DNA of 64,000 bases from Acidobacteriota bacterium (GTDB taxonomy: Bacteria > Acidobacteriota > UBA6911 > RPQK01 > JAJDTT01). The DNA is taken from assembly GCA_965217775.1 (NCBI GenBank), contig CBDCJH010000002.1, positions 2,432,001 to 2,496,000 of the forward strand, in the 5' to 3' direction. Numbering within the stretch: the first letter of the stretch is position 1; each line of letters begins with the position of its first letter. Positions 32,735 to 38,537 of this stretch are shown here, in pieces. A model generated the notes under the pieces. That model was not told the DNA's origin and did no database searches. It was given only the letters and a program-made list of their open reading frames with translations. Both the position numbers and the translations under genes were made by a program.

Positions 32735-33549
32735 GCGGACCGCTGCTGGAGGGCCGGAACATCACGGTCCGGTTCGGACGGGGTGCGGACGCGTTCGAGG
32801 CCGTTCGCGATGCCAGCCTCTCCCTCGATCCGGGTGAGATCGTGGGCGTGGTTGGCGAGAGCGGCAGCGGCAAGACTACCCTTGCCAGGGTACTCGTTGG
32901 CCTCCAGCCGGCGGCCTTTGGAACGGTGTTGTGGGAAGGCAAGCAGGTCGCGGAGCCCGACTCGCGAGAGCGCTTCCCCAAGAACGAGCGCTGGAAGGTC
33001 CAGATGGTCTTCCAGGACCCGTATTCGTCCCTCAACCCCCGGATGCGGGCGTGGTCGGCGGTGGCGGAAGCCCTCCAGGTATGGCGCGGGCTGACGCGCA
33101 AACAGGCCCAGGCAGAGTCCTTTTCCCTGCTTCAATCCATCGGCATCGACGAATCCCAGGCCCGAAGGTTTCCCAAGGCACTTTCGGGCGGCCAGCGTCA
33201 GCGGGTCAGCATCGCCCGGGCCCTGGCACCCGAACCGAGGGTCCTGATCGCGGACGAGCCCACGTCCGCAATCGACCAGTCGGCCCAGGCCCGCCTCGCC
33301 AACCTGCTTCGGCGGCTGCGGTCCGAACGGAACCTGGCCATCCTCTTCATCTCCCATGATTTGGCGCTGGTGCGCTACATGACCTCCCGGGTGCACGTAA
33401 TGCGCCGGGGACGCATTGTTGAGGCGGGACCGACGGAGACGGTCTTGCGGAAGCCACGGCATGCGTACACGCGCGTCCTGCTGGACTCGTTGCCGGGACG
33501 CGGCGGGAAGGGAGCGGCGGCTTTCTTGCCGCCGATCCGGGGGGGTTAG
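32731..33549 (+). CDS. ABC ATP-binding protein (DppF-like)
   Basis: GESGSGKTT, VFQDPYSSLNP, LSGGQRQR, ADEPTS. Confidence 0.9.
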   Translation: MSGPLLEGRNITVRFGRGADAFEAVRDASLSLDPGEIVGVVGESGSGKTTLARVLVGLQPAAFGTVLWEGKQVAEPDSRERFPKNERWKVQMVFQDPYSSLNPRMRAWSAVAEALQVWRGLTRKQAQAESFSLLQSIGIDESQARRFPKALSGGQRQRVSIARALAPEPRVLIADEPTSAIDQSAQARLANLLRRLRSERNLAILFISHDLALVRYMTSRVHVMRRGRIVEAGPTETVLRKPRHAYTRVLLDSLPGRGGKGAAAFLPPIRGG

Positions 33550-33652
33550 GGGGGACGGCAGTCCCCCCTCTACACTTGCCGCCTGCCGAAGCAACACCGG
33601 AGAGCAGGCGGCAAGAAAACCGCCTGTCCCAGTGGGCGACAAGAAAGTCGCC
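33512..33652. repeat. REP-like palindromes (left part of the array interrupted by IS110)
   Basis: GGAGCGGCGGCTTTCTTGCCGCC, GGCGGCAAGAAAACCGCC, GGCGACAAGAAAGTCGCC. Confidence 0.8.
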
Positions 33653-33664
33653 TGTACCCTTTAG

Positions 33665-33845
33665 GGGACTTCACCCACGGTGGGTGAAGAGGGCCATCCG
33701 GCCGGGAGCGACCCTAAAGTCCCCGCGCCTGAGAGCACCTGGAGGGGATTCGTGCCCCGGCCGGTAGCCGCGATGGAGAACCGGTGGAAAGTCAGCGTCC
33801 TAGAACAGCCAGTACAGGAACCGATCCGAATCGCGGCGGCCCAAC
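33665..33845 (+). ncRNA. Predicted IS110 bridge RNA
   Basis: 5' hairpin 33669-33689; stem 33698-33706/33756-33764 encloses target guides; stem 33767-33774/33830-33837 encloses donor guides. Confidence 0.75.
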
Positions 33846-33872
33846 ATCCATTTAAGCACTCGGAGGGTCGGG

Positions 33873-35120
33873 ATGAAACAAGATCAATGGTTTGTGGGGG
33901 TCGATTGGGCCTCCCGGTCGCACCAAGTCTGCGTGCTGGACGCGCAAGGCACTTGTCAGGGACAGCGCAGCTTCCCGCATAGCGGTTCGGGCCTCGCCCA
34001 GATGGCCGACTGGATTCTCGAGCAGACGGGAACGAGTGCGGAGGCCGTCTCGGTGGCGATTGAAGTGATCAACGGTCCCGTAGTGGAGTTCCTGATGGGT
34101 CGGCGTTTTGTCGTCTATACCATCAATCCGACACAGTTGGATCGGTTCCGTGACCGCTTCTCGCCGGCCGGAGCGAAGGATGACCGCCGCGATGCCCGGG
34201 TGCTGGCCGACGCCCTGAGAACCGACGGCAATCGCTTGCGACGGCTGGGTCCCGTCGACTCTGAGGTGATCGAGCTGCGCGAGTACTCACGACTGGCCGA
34301 CCAGTTGATCCGCGAGCGGACCCGGCTGGTCAACCGTCTCCACGATCAACTCTGGCGCTACTATCCGCAGTTCCGGGACCTCAGCAAGAATCTCGCCGAG
34401 CCTTGGGTGATGGAAGTGTGGAAGCTGGCCCCGACGCCGGAGGATGCCCGGAAGCTGCGCCCGGTCCGGGTCGCCAAAGTGTTGAAACAACATCGGATCC
34501 GCCGAATCGATGCTCCCGAGGTCCTGCGTCTCTTGCGGGTGCCCTCCTTCCCCCTGGCCGCCGGCACCGTCCAGGCCGCCAAGGTTCACATCGCCAGCTT
34601 GGCGGAGCTCCTCGCTCTGGTCCAGCGCCAACTCCGTGACCTCTCTCGTGAGAGTGCGCGTCTGATCCGGGTTTTGGAGAAGCGGTTAGAGTCGGCGGCG
34701 GGGCCCCAGGGCCCGAGGCAGGACGTGGCGATCCTTGCCTCCCTGCCCGGGGTCGGCACCAGGGTTCTCGCCACACTACTCTCGGAAGCCTACGATGCGG
34801 TGCAACGAAGAGACTATGCCGCCTTGCGTTGTCTGTGCGGGGTCGCCCCCGTGACCCGGCGCTCCGGCAAACACACCCGCGTGGTGCGCCGCCAGGCGGT
34901 TCACCCTCGTCTGCGCGAGGCGGCCTATCATTGGGCCCGGGTATCCGCACAACACGACGCCACCAGCCGAGCCAAATACAAGGCCCTCAGGGAGCGCGGC
35001 CACGGCCATGCGCGGGCCCTGCGGTCCGTGGCTGACCGTCTGCTGGGGGTGGCCTGCACCATGTTGCGAAACCAGACGATGTTCGATGAGAATCATGCGA
35101 GACAGCGCCGTGCCGCTTGA
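33873..35120 (+). CDS. IS110 family DEDD transposase/recombinase
   Basis: VGVDW, VAIE, KDDRRDA, SLPGVG, GVAPVTRRSGK; GGAGG RBS. Confidence 0.95.
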   Translation: MKQDQWFVGVDWASRSHQVCVLDAQGTCQGQRSFPHSGSGLAQMADWILEQTGTSAEAVSVAIEVINGPVVEFLMGRRFVVYTINPTQLDRFRDRFSPAGAKDDRRDARVLADALRTDGNRLRRLGPVDSEVIELREYSRLADQLIRERTRLVNRLHDQLWRYYPQFRDLSKNLAEPWVMEVWKLAPTPEDARKLRPVRVAKVLKQHRIRRIDAPEVLRLLRVPSFPLAAGTVQAAKVHIASLAELLALVQRQLRDLSRESARLIRVLEKRLESAAGPQGPRQDVAILASLPGVGTRVLATLLSEAYDAVQRRDYAALRCLCGVAPVTRRSGKHTRVVRRQAVHPRLREAAYHWARVSAQHDATSRAKYKALRERGHGHARALRSVADRLLGVACTMLRNQTMFDENHARQRRAA

Positions 35121-35342
35121 TGTAGATCCGGCCCGAGGTTCGCTCCAGGCTCCGCCGTGCGCGACCGCGCCTGGGGCTCGAGTGCGAGCCCGCCTTGGCG
35201 AGATCGGTCCGGATCCGGTTCCGTCCTGGGATCTAGCCGCCGTCGTCGAGCCGGTGGGAAAGTGGGAAACATTCCCATGTTTTCCAATTTTCCACGGGCT
35301 CCTGGCTCCTCCCGTGCCCCCTTGATAAAAGGTGGGAAGTCC

Positions 35343-35413
35343 CCTCCCAGTGGGCGACAAGAATGTCCCCCCTCCCAATGGGCGGCAAGAAAGCCGCCCC
35401 TCCAGTCGCCCCT
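35343..35413. repeat. REP-like palindromes (right part of the interrupted array)
   Basis: GGGCGACAAGAATGTCCCC and GGCGGCAAGAAAGCCGCCCCTCC. Confidence 0.75.
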
Positions 35414-35443
35414 CCGGCCACTCCTCATCGACCGGCCTTTACT

Positions 35444-36274
35444 CTACACCGGGCGGATCCGGATGTTCTTCCAGCGGCACTTGGCGCCGGTCGGCCAGCT
35501 CTTTCCGCCGTGGACCTGGACCGCGATGCTGCCGGGTTGGCCGATGCGGTTCACGATCTCCTGGCGGTTGTCGACGTACTTCTGGTTGGTGGTGGTCGGC
35601 CCGTCGAACTCGCAGATCTTCAGGCCGTTGATCCAGGTGGTGACGTGCGGTTCGGTTCCGCTGATGAGGACCCGGGCCGTGTTCCAATCGTCAATCTTGT
35701 AGGCTTCGATGAACTCCTCCGGCGTGCAGGACGAGATCAATCCGGCTTCCTCCAAGGAGCGGCCTCCGATGGGCGTGAGACGAACCAATCGTTGGTCCTG
35801 ATCCAGGATCCCGTTGACCTCGAAGGTTGCGCAGTTGAAGCCGAAGGTCCCTTCTCCGTAGAGGAACCCCATCTTGCCGTTGTCGTGATAGTCGACCATC
35901 ATCTGCACGCACTGGCCCTTGTCGTTGCTGCGCAGAAAGAGCCCCGAGCAGACCCCCCAGTCCGGTTTGATGTCGATGGAGAGTTCAAAGTCCATGAACT
36001 TCTCGTCGGTGAGCAGGATGCCGCCGTTGCCCGAACCGGGGGGATCCTGCTGACCCGTGATGGTCCCATCCTCGACGGCCCACTGCCCACCCGTACCATG
36101 ACCGATCTTCTCCGGATTGGTGTGCCAGCCATTCAGTGAAACCCCGTCGAAAAGGGGCTTCCACTCGGATTGGGTTGAAGGGGCGCAACCCAGCGCCGAG
36201 AGTGCGGGAATGAAGCTGGCGCCCGCTGCGGTTCGAGACACGTTTTCTATGAAACGACGGCGATCAATCTGCAT
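35444..36274 (-). CDS. DUF1080 / 3-keto-disaccharide hydrolase family protein, Tat-type signal
   Basis: DRRRFI, WKPLFDGVSLNGW, WAVEDG, SGLFLR, IAVQVHG, WKNIRI. Confidence 0.88.
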   Translation of the reverse strand: MQIDRRRFIENVSRTAAGASFIPALSALGCAPSTQSEWKPLFDGVSLNGWHTNPEKIGHGTGGQWAVEDGTITGQQDPPGSGNGGILLTDEKFMDFELSIDIKPDWGVCSGLFLRSNDKGQCVQMMVDYHDNGKMGFLYGEGTFGFNCATFEVNGILDQDQRLVRLTPIGGRSLEEAGLISSCTPEEFIEAYKIDDWNTARVLISGTEPHVTTWINGLKICEFDGPTTTNQKYVDNRQEIVNRIGQPGSIAVQVHGGKSWPTGAKCRWKNIRIRPV

Positions 36275-36860: not shown

Positions 36861-38537
36861 GTGGTAGACACCTCAGCAAATGAGTCTCGTGACGCCGAGT
36901 CGGAGACAGGGAAAGCCCGCGCCAGGTTTTTTCGGGTGACGAAGCGAGCGAAGGAAGCGGCCACTCGGTCCGCGGAAAAGACTCGTGATCGGGCGGCACG
37001 GGTAGCGGCGGGAGCCAAGAATGCTGCGACTCGGTCCGCGGAAAAGACTCGTGACGGGGCGGCGCGGGTTGCGGACGAGGCCAAGGACGCCGCCGCCTGG
37101 TCTGCCGAAAAGGTTCGCGTCGGCACGGCTCGGGTGACGGAGGAAGCCATGCACGCAGCCAATTGGTCCACCAAAAAGACACGGGTTGGGACAACCCACA
37201 TCGCCGAGGGAGCGAAGGATGCGGCCACTCGGTCCGCCGAAAAGGGCCGCGAGGGGGCGGCACAGGTCGCAGACGGAGTCAAGGACGCGGCCGCCTGGTC
37301 CGCCGAGAAGGCACGGGTTGGGGCAACCCACATCGCCGGGGGAACGAAGGATGCAGCCACTCGGTCCGCCGAAAAGACCCGCGAGGGGGCGGCACAGGTC
37401 GCGGACGGAGTCAAGGACGCGGCCGCCTGGTCTGCCGAGAAGGCACAGGTTGGGGCAACCCACATCGCCCAGGGTACTAGGGATGCAGCCGGTTGGTCCG
37501 CCGAGAGGGCTCGCGACGGAGCGGAACAGGTTGTAGAGGGAGTCAAGGACGCGGCCGTCCGGTCCGCGGAGAAGGCTCGTCAAGGGGCTACGGCGGGGCT
37601 GTCCGTTACTCGCTCTTATGGTGCGCCGGTCATCGCCGGTGTGACGGCCGGCGTCTTGGCCGTCTCCGAGAAGGTAAGGGTGACAGATTCCTTCCAGCAG
37701 ATGTTGGCGATTATGCGCGACCCGACTCCGTTCTGGGACGCTTACGGTCACCTTTCGCGCTTTTCACTCAATCTCGACTGGGCGAACTTGGACCCGACGA
37801 AGTATTTGTACGCCGGGACACGGGGCACCTCGCGGGGTCTGGTTGAAGCACAGAGGGTCTGGGAGACGATCCCCGAACAGATCCGGATAGCGGGGCCTGA
37901 GGCCACGGCGAAGTACCTGGAGGGCAAGGACTGGAGCCACATCCGTGCATACAGCGAGGGCGGCAGTCACTCGGCGTCCAATGGCTTGTTCGAAAACTCC
38001 TCCGTGAATCGCGCACGGGGCAGCGATCTAATGACGCCGAGGGAGCTGGAAGCGGCGCAACGGATCCTGCAGAGCGACGCCTTTCACGCGACGCTCCTGG
38101 AGACGGCAAAATGCGCCTTGGAAGGGGCCTTGACCGCCGCGGCGATAGCAGCGGTGATGGCCGTGTTGGAGTACGGGCTCCAGTACCAGAGAAGAGAGAT
38201 AACGGAAGGCGAACTATACCGGGCGATCGGCAAGTCCATCATGGCCGCCGGAATCAGCGGCGCGGCCGTTTCGGGACTTTTGGCGGCGTTGGCGATGGCG
38301 TTTCCGGCAACGGTCCCGGTGATGTCGTTCCTGCTGGTCCCATTGATGGTGATCGGCTTTTCGGTCCTGGGCTTGCGGCTGGCGCGGCTGGGCAAGGGCT
38401 GGTATGAGGTGTATCTAAGCGAACAGCCGCTCAGGCCACTGGCACTTCAGTATTGGCTGGCGAACCAGGCAAGGGCCACAGCCAACTACGTCGGTACGCT
38501 GGCGAGACGGCGTCTGGCCGAAGAAGCCGGGAGGTGA
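36861..38537 (+). CDS. Hypothetical protein: LEA-like 22-aa repeats + HNH-like motif + C-terminal hydrophobic helices
   Basis: ~10 KDAA(T/A)(R/W)SAEK repeats; KDWSHIRAYSEGGSHSASNG...VNRARG; hydrophobic C-terminus. Confidence 0.75.
   Translation: MVDTSANESRDAESETGKARARFFRVTKRAKEAATRSAEKTRDRAARVAAGAKNAATRSAEKTRDGAARVADEAKDAAAWSAEKVRVGTARVTEEAMHAANWSTKKTRVGTTHIAEGAKDAATRSAEKGREGAAQVADGVKDAAAWSAEKARVGATHIAGGTKDAATRSAEKTREGAAQVADGVKDAAAWSAEKAQVGATHIAQGTRDAAGWSAERARDGAEQVVEGVKDAAVRSAEKARQGATAGLSVTRSYGAPVIAGVTAGVLAVSEKVRVTDSFQQMLAIMRDPTPFWDAYGHLSRFSLNLDWANLDPTKYLYAGTRGTSRGLVEAQRVWETIPEQIRIAGPEATAKYLEGKDWSHIRAYSEGGSHSASNGLFENSSVNRARGSDLMTPRELEAAQRILQSDAFHATLLETAKCALEGALTAAAIAAVMAVLEYGLQYQRREITEGELYRAIGKSIMAAGISGAAVSGLLAALAMAFPATVPVMSFLLVPLMVIGFSVLGLRLARLGKGWYEVYLSEQPLRPLALQYWLANQARATANYVGTLARRRLAEEAGR
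36950..37590 (+). repeat. Intragenic tandem repeat, 66-bp unit alternating as a 132-bp higher-order unit
   Basis: AAGGA(C/T)GC(G/A)GCC..(C/T)GGTC(C/T)GC(C/G)GA(A/G)AAG recurs every 66 bp. Confidence 0.85.

Follow-up and report, generated by a model that had tools for sequence, protein, structure and literature searches.

The described system closest to the element analysed here is IS621 of Escherichia coli, an insertion sequence (IS) of the IS110 family with a 177-nt bridge RNA. In the available text of the papers on it (PMC11208160, PMC11208158), IS621 combines a RuvC-like DEDD domain with a Tnp domain that contains a conserved serine. Its RNA is encoded in the left end and consists of a 5′ hairpin and two internal-loop modules, in which the left guides are sense, the right guides antisense and a 2-nt core lies inside the guides. 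Repetitive extragenic palindromic (REP) sequences are the target, and a promoter is rebuilt across the circle junction (PMC11208160). The same portion of PMC11208160 reports bridge RNAs predicted in 85.7% of IS110-subgroup and 93.0% of IS1111-subgroup elements in ISfinder and names REPs as targets. Here, we analyse a window of 64,000 nt from an Acidobacteriota genome (GCA_965217775.1, contig CBDCJH010000002.1) and conclude that its positions 33653–35342 very probably form an intact IS110-subgroup insertion sequence whose left end encodes a bridge RNA of the IS621 type. All of the properties just listed for IS621 recur in it, the junction promoter as a prediction, and we grade it as a further member of the known bridge-RNA IS110 elements and not as a new kind.

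The differences from IS621, again set against the available text of those papers, concern the core, the guides, the protein and the host. The core is CC here and CT in IS621; the left donor guide has 9 non-core positions here and 7 there; and the right target guide is core plus 5–7 nt here, compared with core plus 2 in wild-type IS621, with longer right target guides noted in other orthologues (PMC11208160). The recombinase has 415 aa instead of 326 aa, with approximately 90 extra residues (158–246), and is too distant for a single-sequence match. The REP family and the host phylum are other ones, and the donor-loop handshake base is unpaired in the window's genus.

Three further systems are relevant, each as described in the available text of its sources. 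ISCro4 (IS622; PDB 9t56; bioRxiv 10.1101/2025.05.14.653916) belongs to the same recombinase family and has a bridge RNA with target- and donor-binding loops and handshake guides, but its core is CT, its host is an enterobacterium and it has been the subject of engineering and assays, whereas the window element is known from sequence alone. ISPpu10 and ISPpu9 of Pseudomonas putida (bioRxiv 10.64898/2026.03.19.712850, PMC12288879) are likewise IS110-family elements that insert in one conserved intergenic stem-loop repeat, a REP, with a target half-site adjoining the hairpin, but their repeat sequence and guides are unrelated to those of the window element, and for ISPpu10 the stem-loop has been demonstrated as a second specificity determinant (bioRxiv 10.64898/2026.03.19.712850). 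The IS1111 subgroup with its seekRNA (PMC11208160) is part of the same superfamily and shares RNA-guided site choice, but there the guide RNA lies in the right end, together with long subterminal inverted repeats, and here it lies in the left end. Membership in that subgroup, whose right end is far longer than the left, was considered and rejected, given that the guide modules are in the left end and the ends measure 220 nt (left) and 222 nt (right). A literature search returned no ‘CC core’ paired with IS110; the supplementary orthologue tables of PMC11208160, which lie outside that search, may include CC cores or close relatives.

Element ends, CC core and REP target

We refer to the element at 33653–35342 as the window copy, to its own genome as G000 and to the two congeners that carry copies as G001 and G006; all features below are on the plus strand. 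The element is 1.69 kb long, with its 415-aa open reading frame (ORF) at 33873–35120 flanked by 220 nt (5′) and 222 nt (3′) of non-coding DNA, the left end (LE, 33653–33872) and the right end (RE, 35121–35342). These limits, with one CC counted, follow from both junctions being alike in all copies. On the left, the target half-site AAAGTCG (33644–33650), within the upstream REP, is followed by the CC core (33651–33652; flank and core together 33644–33652), and the LE starts with TGTACCC, the right donor half-site, to give the junction CC/TGTAC at 33651–33657 (a slash marks the junction). On the right, the RE ends in the left donor half-site GGTGGGAAGT (35331–35340) and a second CC (35341–35342), together 35331–35342, after which comes the right target half-site CCTCCCA (35343–35349).

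The own genome (6.43 Mb, 2 contigs) holds three copies, namely the window copy, a twin that is 100% identical over 1,599 nt and a third that is 82% identical. Among 61 related genomes searched with the protein, three, all of one genus, carry copies, 10 in total (own genome 3, G001 3 and G006 4). All 10 left junctions read flank+CC/TGTACC, as ...GTC(S)CC/TGTAC or ...TGTCCC/TGTAC, and all 10 right junctions read GGTGGGAAGT+CC/CCTCC (GGTGGGAAGTCC/CCTCC). In a wider sample of the phylum, 17 of 401 genomes have a relative at E <= 1e-25, and multi-copy relatives at 39–58% protein identity retain the CC/TGTAC and GGTGG(G/A)(G/A)AGT/CC ends. Overall, the CC/TGTAC start is present in 22 of 22 examined copies and a right end in ...AGT/CC in 19 of 22 loci, with that of one further copy in a separate locus. 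The target is rebuilt as AAAGTCG-CC-CCTCCCA, and an unoccupied REP form, the 14-mer AAAGTCGCCCCTCC, occurs 17 times in the own genome with one CC, which fits a 2-nt shared core and no target duplication. A core of CC common to target and donor, as the first-pass annotation of this window had proposed, is therefore supported. A CT core in the IS621 register fits the junctions of the relative G372; for the window's genus it is ruled out by the right junction, GAAGTCCCCTCC.

An array of hairpins, each of the form GGCG(A/G)C-AAGAA(A/T)-G(T/C)CGCC, surrounds the element. This array is intergenic, between the 3′ ends of convergent genes for an oligopeptide-type ABC ATPase and a 3-keto-disaccharide hydrolase. 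Two REP units lie upstream at 33607–33652 (GGCGGCAAGAAAACCGCC at 33607–33624 and GGCGACAAGAAAGTCGCC at 33635–33652), and the downstream region (35343–35404) contains two more (35353–35370 and 35381–35398), each ending in a free target-like site (AATGTCCCCCCTCC and AAAGCCGCCCCTCC, respectively). The REP pattern G[AG]CA[AG]GAA[AT][GA][TC]C[GC]CC has 185 matches in the own genome, where 30 arrays of 2–4 units have a 28-nt period. Insertion takes place at the 3′ edge of the REP hairpin, and the left target guide spans the end of the hairpin loop and the 3′ arm. The REP consensus is followed by (G/C/T)CTCC, and the CC-CCTCC site arises only from the C form. A degenerate free site, AMWGYCSCCCCTCC, is found 62, 55 and 75 times in the three element-bearing genomes (62 in the own genome), compared with 0–1 for a reversed control (0 in the own genome). 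All three own-genome copies and all seven congener copies occupy REP-type sites with the same ends, which was the outcome to be checked if, as had been suggested from the window alone, the host REP is the target; that target is supported.

One locus is shared by the window copy and a copy in G006 (G006d, L019), with flanks 93% identical, elements 82.5% identical and different guide lineages. The occupied REP unit there differs (GCCGCC versus GTCGCC) in step with the left target guide, and the number of REP units in the shared array also differs between the window genome and G006.

A search for related loci in genome contigs returned just 2 loci, both in one Acidobacteriota metagenome-assembled genome, and the search of metagenome contigs found none. 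The right end of the twin copy (L044, G000:C2:4641900-4644480) is split by a 2.46-kb foreign IS at the equivalent of approximately 35238 in the window. That IS, with inverted ends CTGCCCT(T/A)TACCCACA and ATCTAGCC as an 8-bp direct repeat, codes for a protein of 726 aa that contains DruA-like, Tnp_DNA_bind and DDE_Tnp_1 domains.

Guides and their covariation with target and donor

Four guide motifs can be read in the left end, two in each internal loop. In the target-binding module (33698–33764), the left target guide AAAGUCCCC (DNA AAAGTCCCC, 33716–33724) has the same sense as the top strand and corresponds to left target plus core (AAAGTCCCC against AAAGTCSCC), and the right target guide UGGAGGGG (DNA TGGAGGGG, 33740–33747) is the reverse complement of CC+CCTCC(A) (GGAGGGG against CCCCTCC). 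In the donor-binding module (33767–33837), the left donor guide GUGGAAAGUCA (33784–33794) corresponds to the right end GTGGGAAGT+CC with one mismatch (GTGGAAAGTC against GTGGGAAGTCC), and the right donor guide GUACAGG (33812–33818) is the reverse complement of CC+TGTAC (GTACAGG against CCTGTAC) and is invariant. All four guides pivot on the CC core. The first-pass annotation had placed the 5′ hairpin and these motifs exactly, with GGTGGAAAGTC at 33783–33793 as its version of the left donor guide, and the flank and end sequences with which it compared them are all present. As a chance control, 5,000 mononucleotide shuffles of the window-copy left end were examined. The left target, right target, left donor and right donor guides were matched as well by 129, 358, 226 and 73 shuffles, respectively, and all four jointly by none.

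The guides change together with the flanks. Within the genus, the guide AAAGTCCCC is found with flanks AAAGTCCCC (copy 2) and AAAGTCGCC (window copy), ACAGTCCCC with ACAGTCCCC three times, AATGTCCC(T) with AATGTCCC twice, and AAAGCCGC(A) with AAAGCCGCC twice and AAAGTCGCC once. Relatives at 52–58% protein identity retain the ends and have other guides that match other flanks, for instance G385, with CCGGCGTAC(T) and CTTGCTGGG for the target GCCGGCGTA-CC-CAGCAAG, and G372b, with GGGGTCCC and GAAAAGG for GGGGTC-CC-TTTTC. We compared 15 distinct element–site pairs from 10 guide lineages, taking in relatives down to 52% protein identity (13 pairs for the right target guide). The left target guide, which covaries in these 10 lineages, matches its own sites at a mean of 7.9 of 9 positions, compared with 4.6 at other sites, and the right target guide matches at 7.1 of 8, compared with 4.7. 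Of 100,000 lineage permutations, none reached the observed sum for the left target guide and 5 reached it for the right target guide; these counts overstate independence, given that the lineages are related, and are not true probabilities.

Sense left guides and antisense right guides are found in the same register in all lineages. The left target guide reads 7+2 in most of them and 6+2+1 in those with a U-ending guide (G006a/b, G370, G372a/b), and the C run at the crossover masks the exact point of exchange. On the donor side, two positions of the left donor guide change in step with the right end, giving three variants (GTGGGGAGT in G364 and G372, GTGGAGAGT in G385 and GTGGGAAGT in the rest). 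The right donor guide matches its DNA, but both are invariant and give covariation nothing to test. A left donor guide longer than that of IS621 had been suggested, and in part this stands: nine non-core positions (GTGGGAAGT) match in all lineages, compared with 7 in IS621. The extra 5′ G assigned to it is rejected, because this column varies (G/C/T/A) while the DNA stays G.

Candidate handshake guides, absent from the first-pass annotation, can also be placed. By the IS621 rule in the available text of PMC11208158, the target-loop position in the window copy would be AU at 33748–33749. The bases there are A(U/C), 3′ of the core-binding GG, and could pair with the right-end GT in 9 of 10 lineages; in the window copy, A:T plus U.G is possible. 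In the donor loop, pairing of the corresponding base with the final base of the left target is possible in G370, G372, G364, G385 and G233, for example in G385 (UA with TA) and G372b (GA with TC).

RNA fold, recombinase and predicted junction promoter

In the minimum-free-energy fold of 33651–33872, the guide motifs lie in two internal loops, and the fold energy is weakly unusual (z = -2.0; 5 of 200 shuffles fold as well). We drew a structure by hand, comprising a 9-bp 5′ hairpin (CTTCACCCACGGTGGGTGAAG, 33669–33689), outer (33698–33712 with 33752–33764) and distal (33725–33738) stems of loop 1, and outer (33767–33774 with 33830–33837), inner (33778–33781 with 33823–33826) and distal (approximately 33795–33810) stems of loop 2, and compared it with 13 sequences. 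Standard pairs fill 92.5% of cells, compared with 33–41% when the partners are slid by 1–3 columns, and 13 of 43 stem pairs have changes on both sides, a covariation score reached by 0 of 500 shuffles; the structure was derived in part from the same 13 sequences, which favours it in these figures. Both-side changes affect 4 pairs of helix 1, the 5′ hairpin, and 6 pairs of the donor-module helices 4–6. A covariance model of homologous left ends, which had been proposed as a check of the bridge-RNA reading and was built on the hand-drawn structure, finds exactly three places in the own genome, the three copies, and also the non-seed left ends of G093 (59.3 bits) and G076 (53.7 bits). On loci of relatives at 24–30% protein identity it gave no convincing match (best 17.2 bits, E 0.0067).

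Some relatives have longer left ends. In G076 (L025/L039; 39% identity to the window protein in the alignment, 41% by genome search) and G093 (L026; 37–43%), an additional module resembling a target loop precedes the canonical one. The loops of this upstream module match real flanks (ACCGCACTCC with ACCGCACT-CC, and AGCGCACTCC with GCGCACT-CC), and the module at the canonical position has a conserved GAUGCAUUC. The left ends of G385 and G233 (L023/L024) are approximately 400 nt long, and the extra 170 nt or so contain two GGAAA...UUUCC hairpins upstream of the target loop.

The recombinase gene at 33873–35120, identified from the ORF list and from domain and family models, is preceded by a Shine-Dalgarno sequence GGAGG at 33860–33864. 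Pfam models place DEDD_Tnp_IS110 (PF01548) at residues 8–165 (1.4e-36) and Transposase_20 (PF02371), the C-terminal Tnp domain, with 7.9e-16, and the protein reaches 181.5 bits with the NCBIfam model NF033542, ‘IS110 family RNA-guided transposase’, whose cut-off is 140. Searched against PDB, a profile built from 14 relatives matches the IS621 transposase (8wt6_A, E 6.1e-28) and ISCro4 (9t56_A, E 7.6e-28). All 14 sequences in the alignment conserve D11, E64, D104, D107 and S331. In the profile alignment, D104 and D107 align with the KTDTVDA motif of IS621 and S331 with the serine of ..YESGSS.., for which the available text of PMC11208158 gives the residue names D102, D105 and S241. We read E64 as the probable equivalent of IS621 E60, at a point where the HMMER alignment is off by an insert. 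Residues 158–246 separate the two blocks that align and are unmatched in the alignment with IS621. The bridge-RNA reading is supported by guide–flank covariation in homologues, by stem covariation and by the homology of the recombinase to those of IS621 and ISCro4.

The LE carries a -10-like hexamer TACCCT (33655–33660) that would be usable only with a right-end -35 once the element is circularised, and the RE carries a -35-like TTGATA (35322–35327). The RE–LE joint places the two 17 nt apart, and TTGnnn-N17-TACnnT spans the circle junction in 13 of 13 elements; in the window copy, the -10 agrees with TATAAT at only three of six positions. In integrated copies, the hexamer at the equivalent position is unrelated, and a scan of linear 33400–35600 for sigma-70-like sites found none. 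Contigs from two metatranscriptome runs of one study cover 33667–33836 (0 differences) and 33632–33835 (2 differences), which supports expression weakly. Contig starts at 33667, in an RNA run and also in run X1, fall at the point where the copies diverge and hence carry no information on the transcription start; the parts of the recombinase gene without RNA contig cover carry no evidential weight. Joints that skip 1694–1699 nt have sides of just 20–24 nt, in REP units, and are thus not assignable here as empty sites. A contig of the X20 RNA library on 33654–33993 is a G001-type variant, with flank GGGACTAACAGTCCCC and guide ACAGTCCCC. Of the runs X9, X11, X16 and X18–X20, those carrying a readable label and containing some of the window are sponge metagenomes.

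We infer the mechanism by homology to IS621, and this applies to the formation of circles, to transcription with its start point and to catalysis. The element would excise as a circle, and its RE–LE junction would join the -35 TTGATA to the -10 TACCCT and drive an RNA of approximately 180 nt from near 33667. Loop 1 would pair with both strands of the REP site AAAGTC(G/C)-CC-CCTCC, that is, the 3′ hairpin arm and the CCTCC that follows it, and loop 2 with GTGGGAAGT-CC-TGTAC at the junction of the circle. Strands would then be swapped by the DEDD/Ser recombinase at the shared CC core, without target duplication.

Two side observations concern DNA in and next to the element. In the right end, an imperfect palindrome at 35253–35297 (GGTGGGAAAGTGGGAAACAT / ATGTTTTCCAATTTTCCAC) has a first arm like the left donor half-site; it is common to G001, and other lineages have a different GC-rich hairpin instead. 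It may be a terminator or a protein site. Downstream, at 36861–38537 (+), lies a 558-aa ORF whose first half consists of near-identical units of approximately 22 residues (..DAATRSAEKTRDGAARVA..).

Competing explanations and meaning for the family

Several observations weigh against a bridge RNA of the IS621 type at this locus. A phmmer search of PDB with the single recombinase sequence gave no match at E <= 0.001, nor at E <= 10. An Rfam scan of 33000–36000 gave no match at E <= 1, with the bridge-RNA family content of Rfam uncertain, and RNAalifold on 8 close left ends found 0 compensatory pairs, because these ends are 92% identical and distant relatives are required. Apart from the relatedness of the guide lineages, two cognate pairs are poor (6 of 9 for the left target of G370a and 6 of 8 for the right target of G372a), most lineages leave the left donor guide unpaired at its second core position, and the donor-loop handshake is AA in the window's genus, with no pairing to the last base of any left target. 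With its -10 at three of six positions, the junction promoter of the window copy would fail the scanner's own criteria. The ends, strand and level of the RNA contigs are unreadable, DNA carry-over is possible and one contig enters from the flank, and no RE-to-LE circle joint was seen in the sequencing-run contigs, which were searched as contigs only.

A first alternative accepts a genuine IS110-type bridge-RNA element and holds that the window copy itself is decaying, poorly active or inactive, which we consider unlikely. It draws on further points that count against the copy as we read it: the left donor guide has an A for G mismatch to its own right end, confined to the window-copy lineage, the left target guide has a C for G mismatch to its own site, and no free copy of the exact target AAAGTCCCCCCTCC exists in the own genome, compared with 11 in G001. 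In the leader (33660–33666, between the -10 and the 5′ hairpin), 13 nt are absent in the window copy and its twin and present in 8 of 8 other copies of the genus. The weak -10 and the split right end of the twin point the same way. However, the 415-aa ORF is intact, and free sites with one mismatch are plentiful (17 plus 29). The window copy also looks recently active, given that the twin is identical over 1,599 nt; this twin, at a different REP-type site, has the same mismatch and deletion, so the element moved after acquiring them. The deletion lies between two short GTACC-like repeats.

Very improbable, in our view, is that the left-end motifs are recombinase sites at the DNA level, subterminal repeats or a regulatory fold of the 5′ untranslated region, with no RNA guides, and that their likeness to the flanks comes from common REP-like sequence. 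REP-like sequence is indeed abundant in the own genome, the fold energy of the single left end is only mildly unusual (z = -2.0) and the contigs do not resolve the RNA ends. Such motifs would nevertheless have to account for sense left and antisense right guides of constant register in every lineage, for guides placed in the internal loops of covarying stems, and for relatives elsewhere with non-REP flanks, such as GCCGGCGTA-CC-CAGCAAG, whose loops have changed accordingly; the protein family is, moreover, one for which RNA guidance has been solved structurally (available text of PMC11208158). Hardly credible is a spread of the copies by duplication or recombination of REP-flanked segments without site-specific insertion: both flanks are shared between G364a and G364b, as is the right side, up to the locus end, between G370a and G370b, which makes these segmental duplicates or parts of larger repeats, and the window copy and G006d occupy the same locus in two species, but the 3 own-genome, 3 G001 and 4 G006 copies have unrelated sequence beyond the REP-type site (or neighbouring REP units in arrays), and at the shared locus flanks that are 93% identical enclose elements only 82.5% identical and of different guide lineages.

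As a bridge-RNA element, the window copy adds no new principle. Its value is that of a clean, fully readable natural example from the Acidobacteriota with a CC core, a 9+2 left donor guide and a right target guide of 7–9 nt, accompanied by a small series of natural variants of the left target guide that each fit a REP sub-variant. Possible uses are as an orthologue for rules of core flexibility and guide length, and as a marker for REP dynamics in these genomes.

With a little less than even confidence, we suggest that this series records natural ‘reprogramming’ within one genus, in which only the left target guide changed, at least four times (AAAGTCCCC, ACAGTCCCC, AATGTCCC, AAAGCCGC), following sub-variants of the REP hairpin arm, while the scaffold, the core, the donor guides and the right target guide stayed fixed; different lineages would have arrived independently in the same REP array of two species. 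If true, this would be a natural series in which bridge RNAs retarget through drift of a single guide against a repeat family that itself evolves, in a system that has a CC core and donor and right-target guides longer than those of IS621 and in which the REP hairpin is possibly a structural co-determinant.

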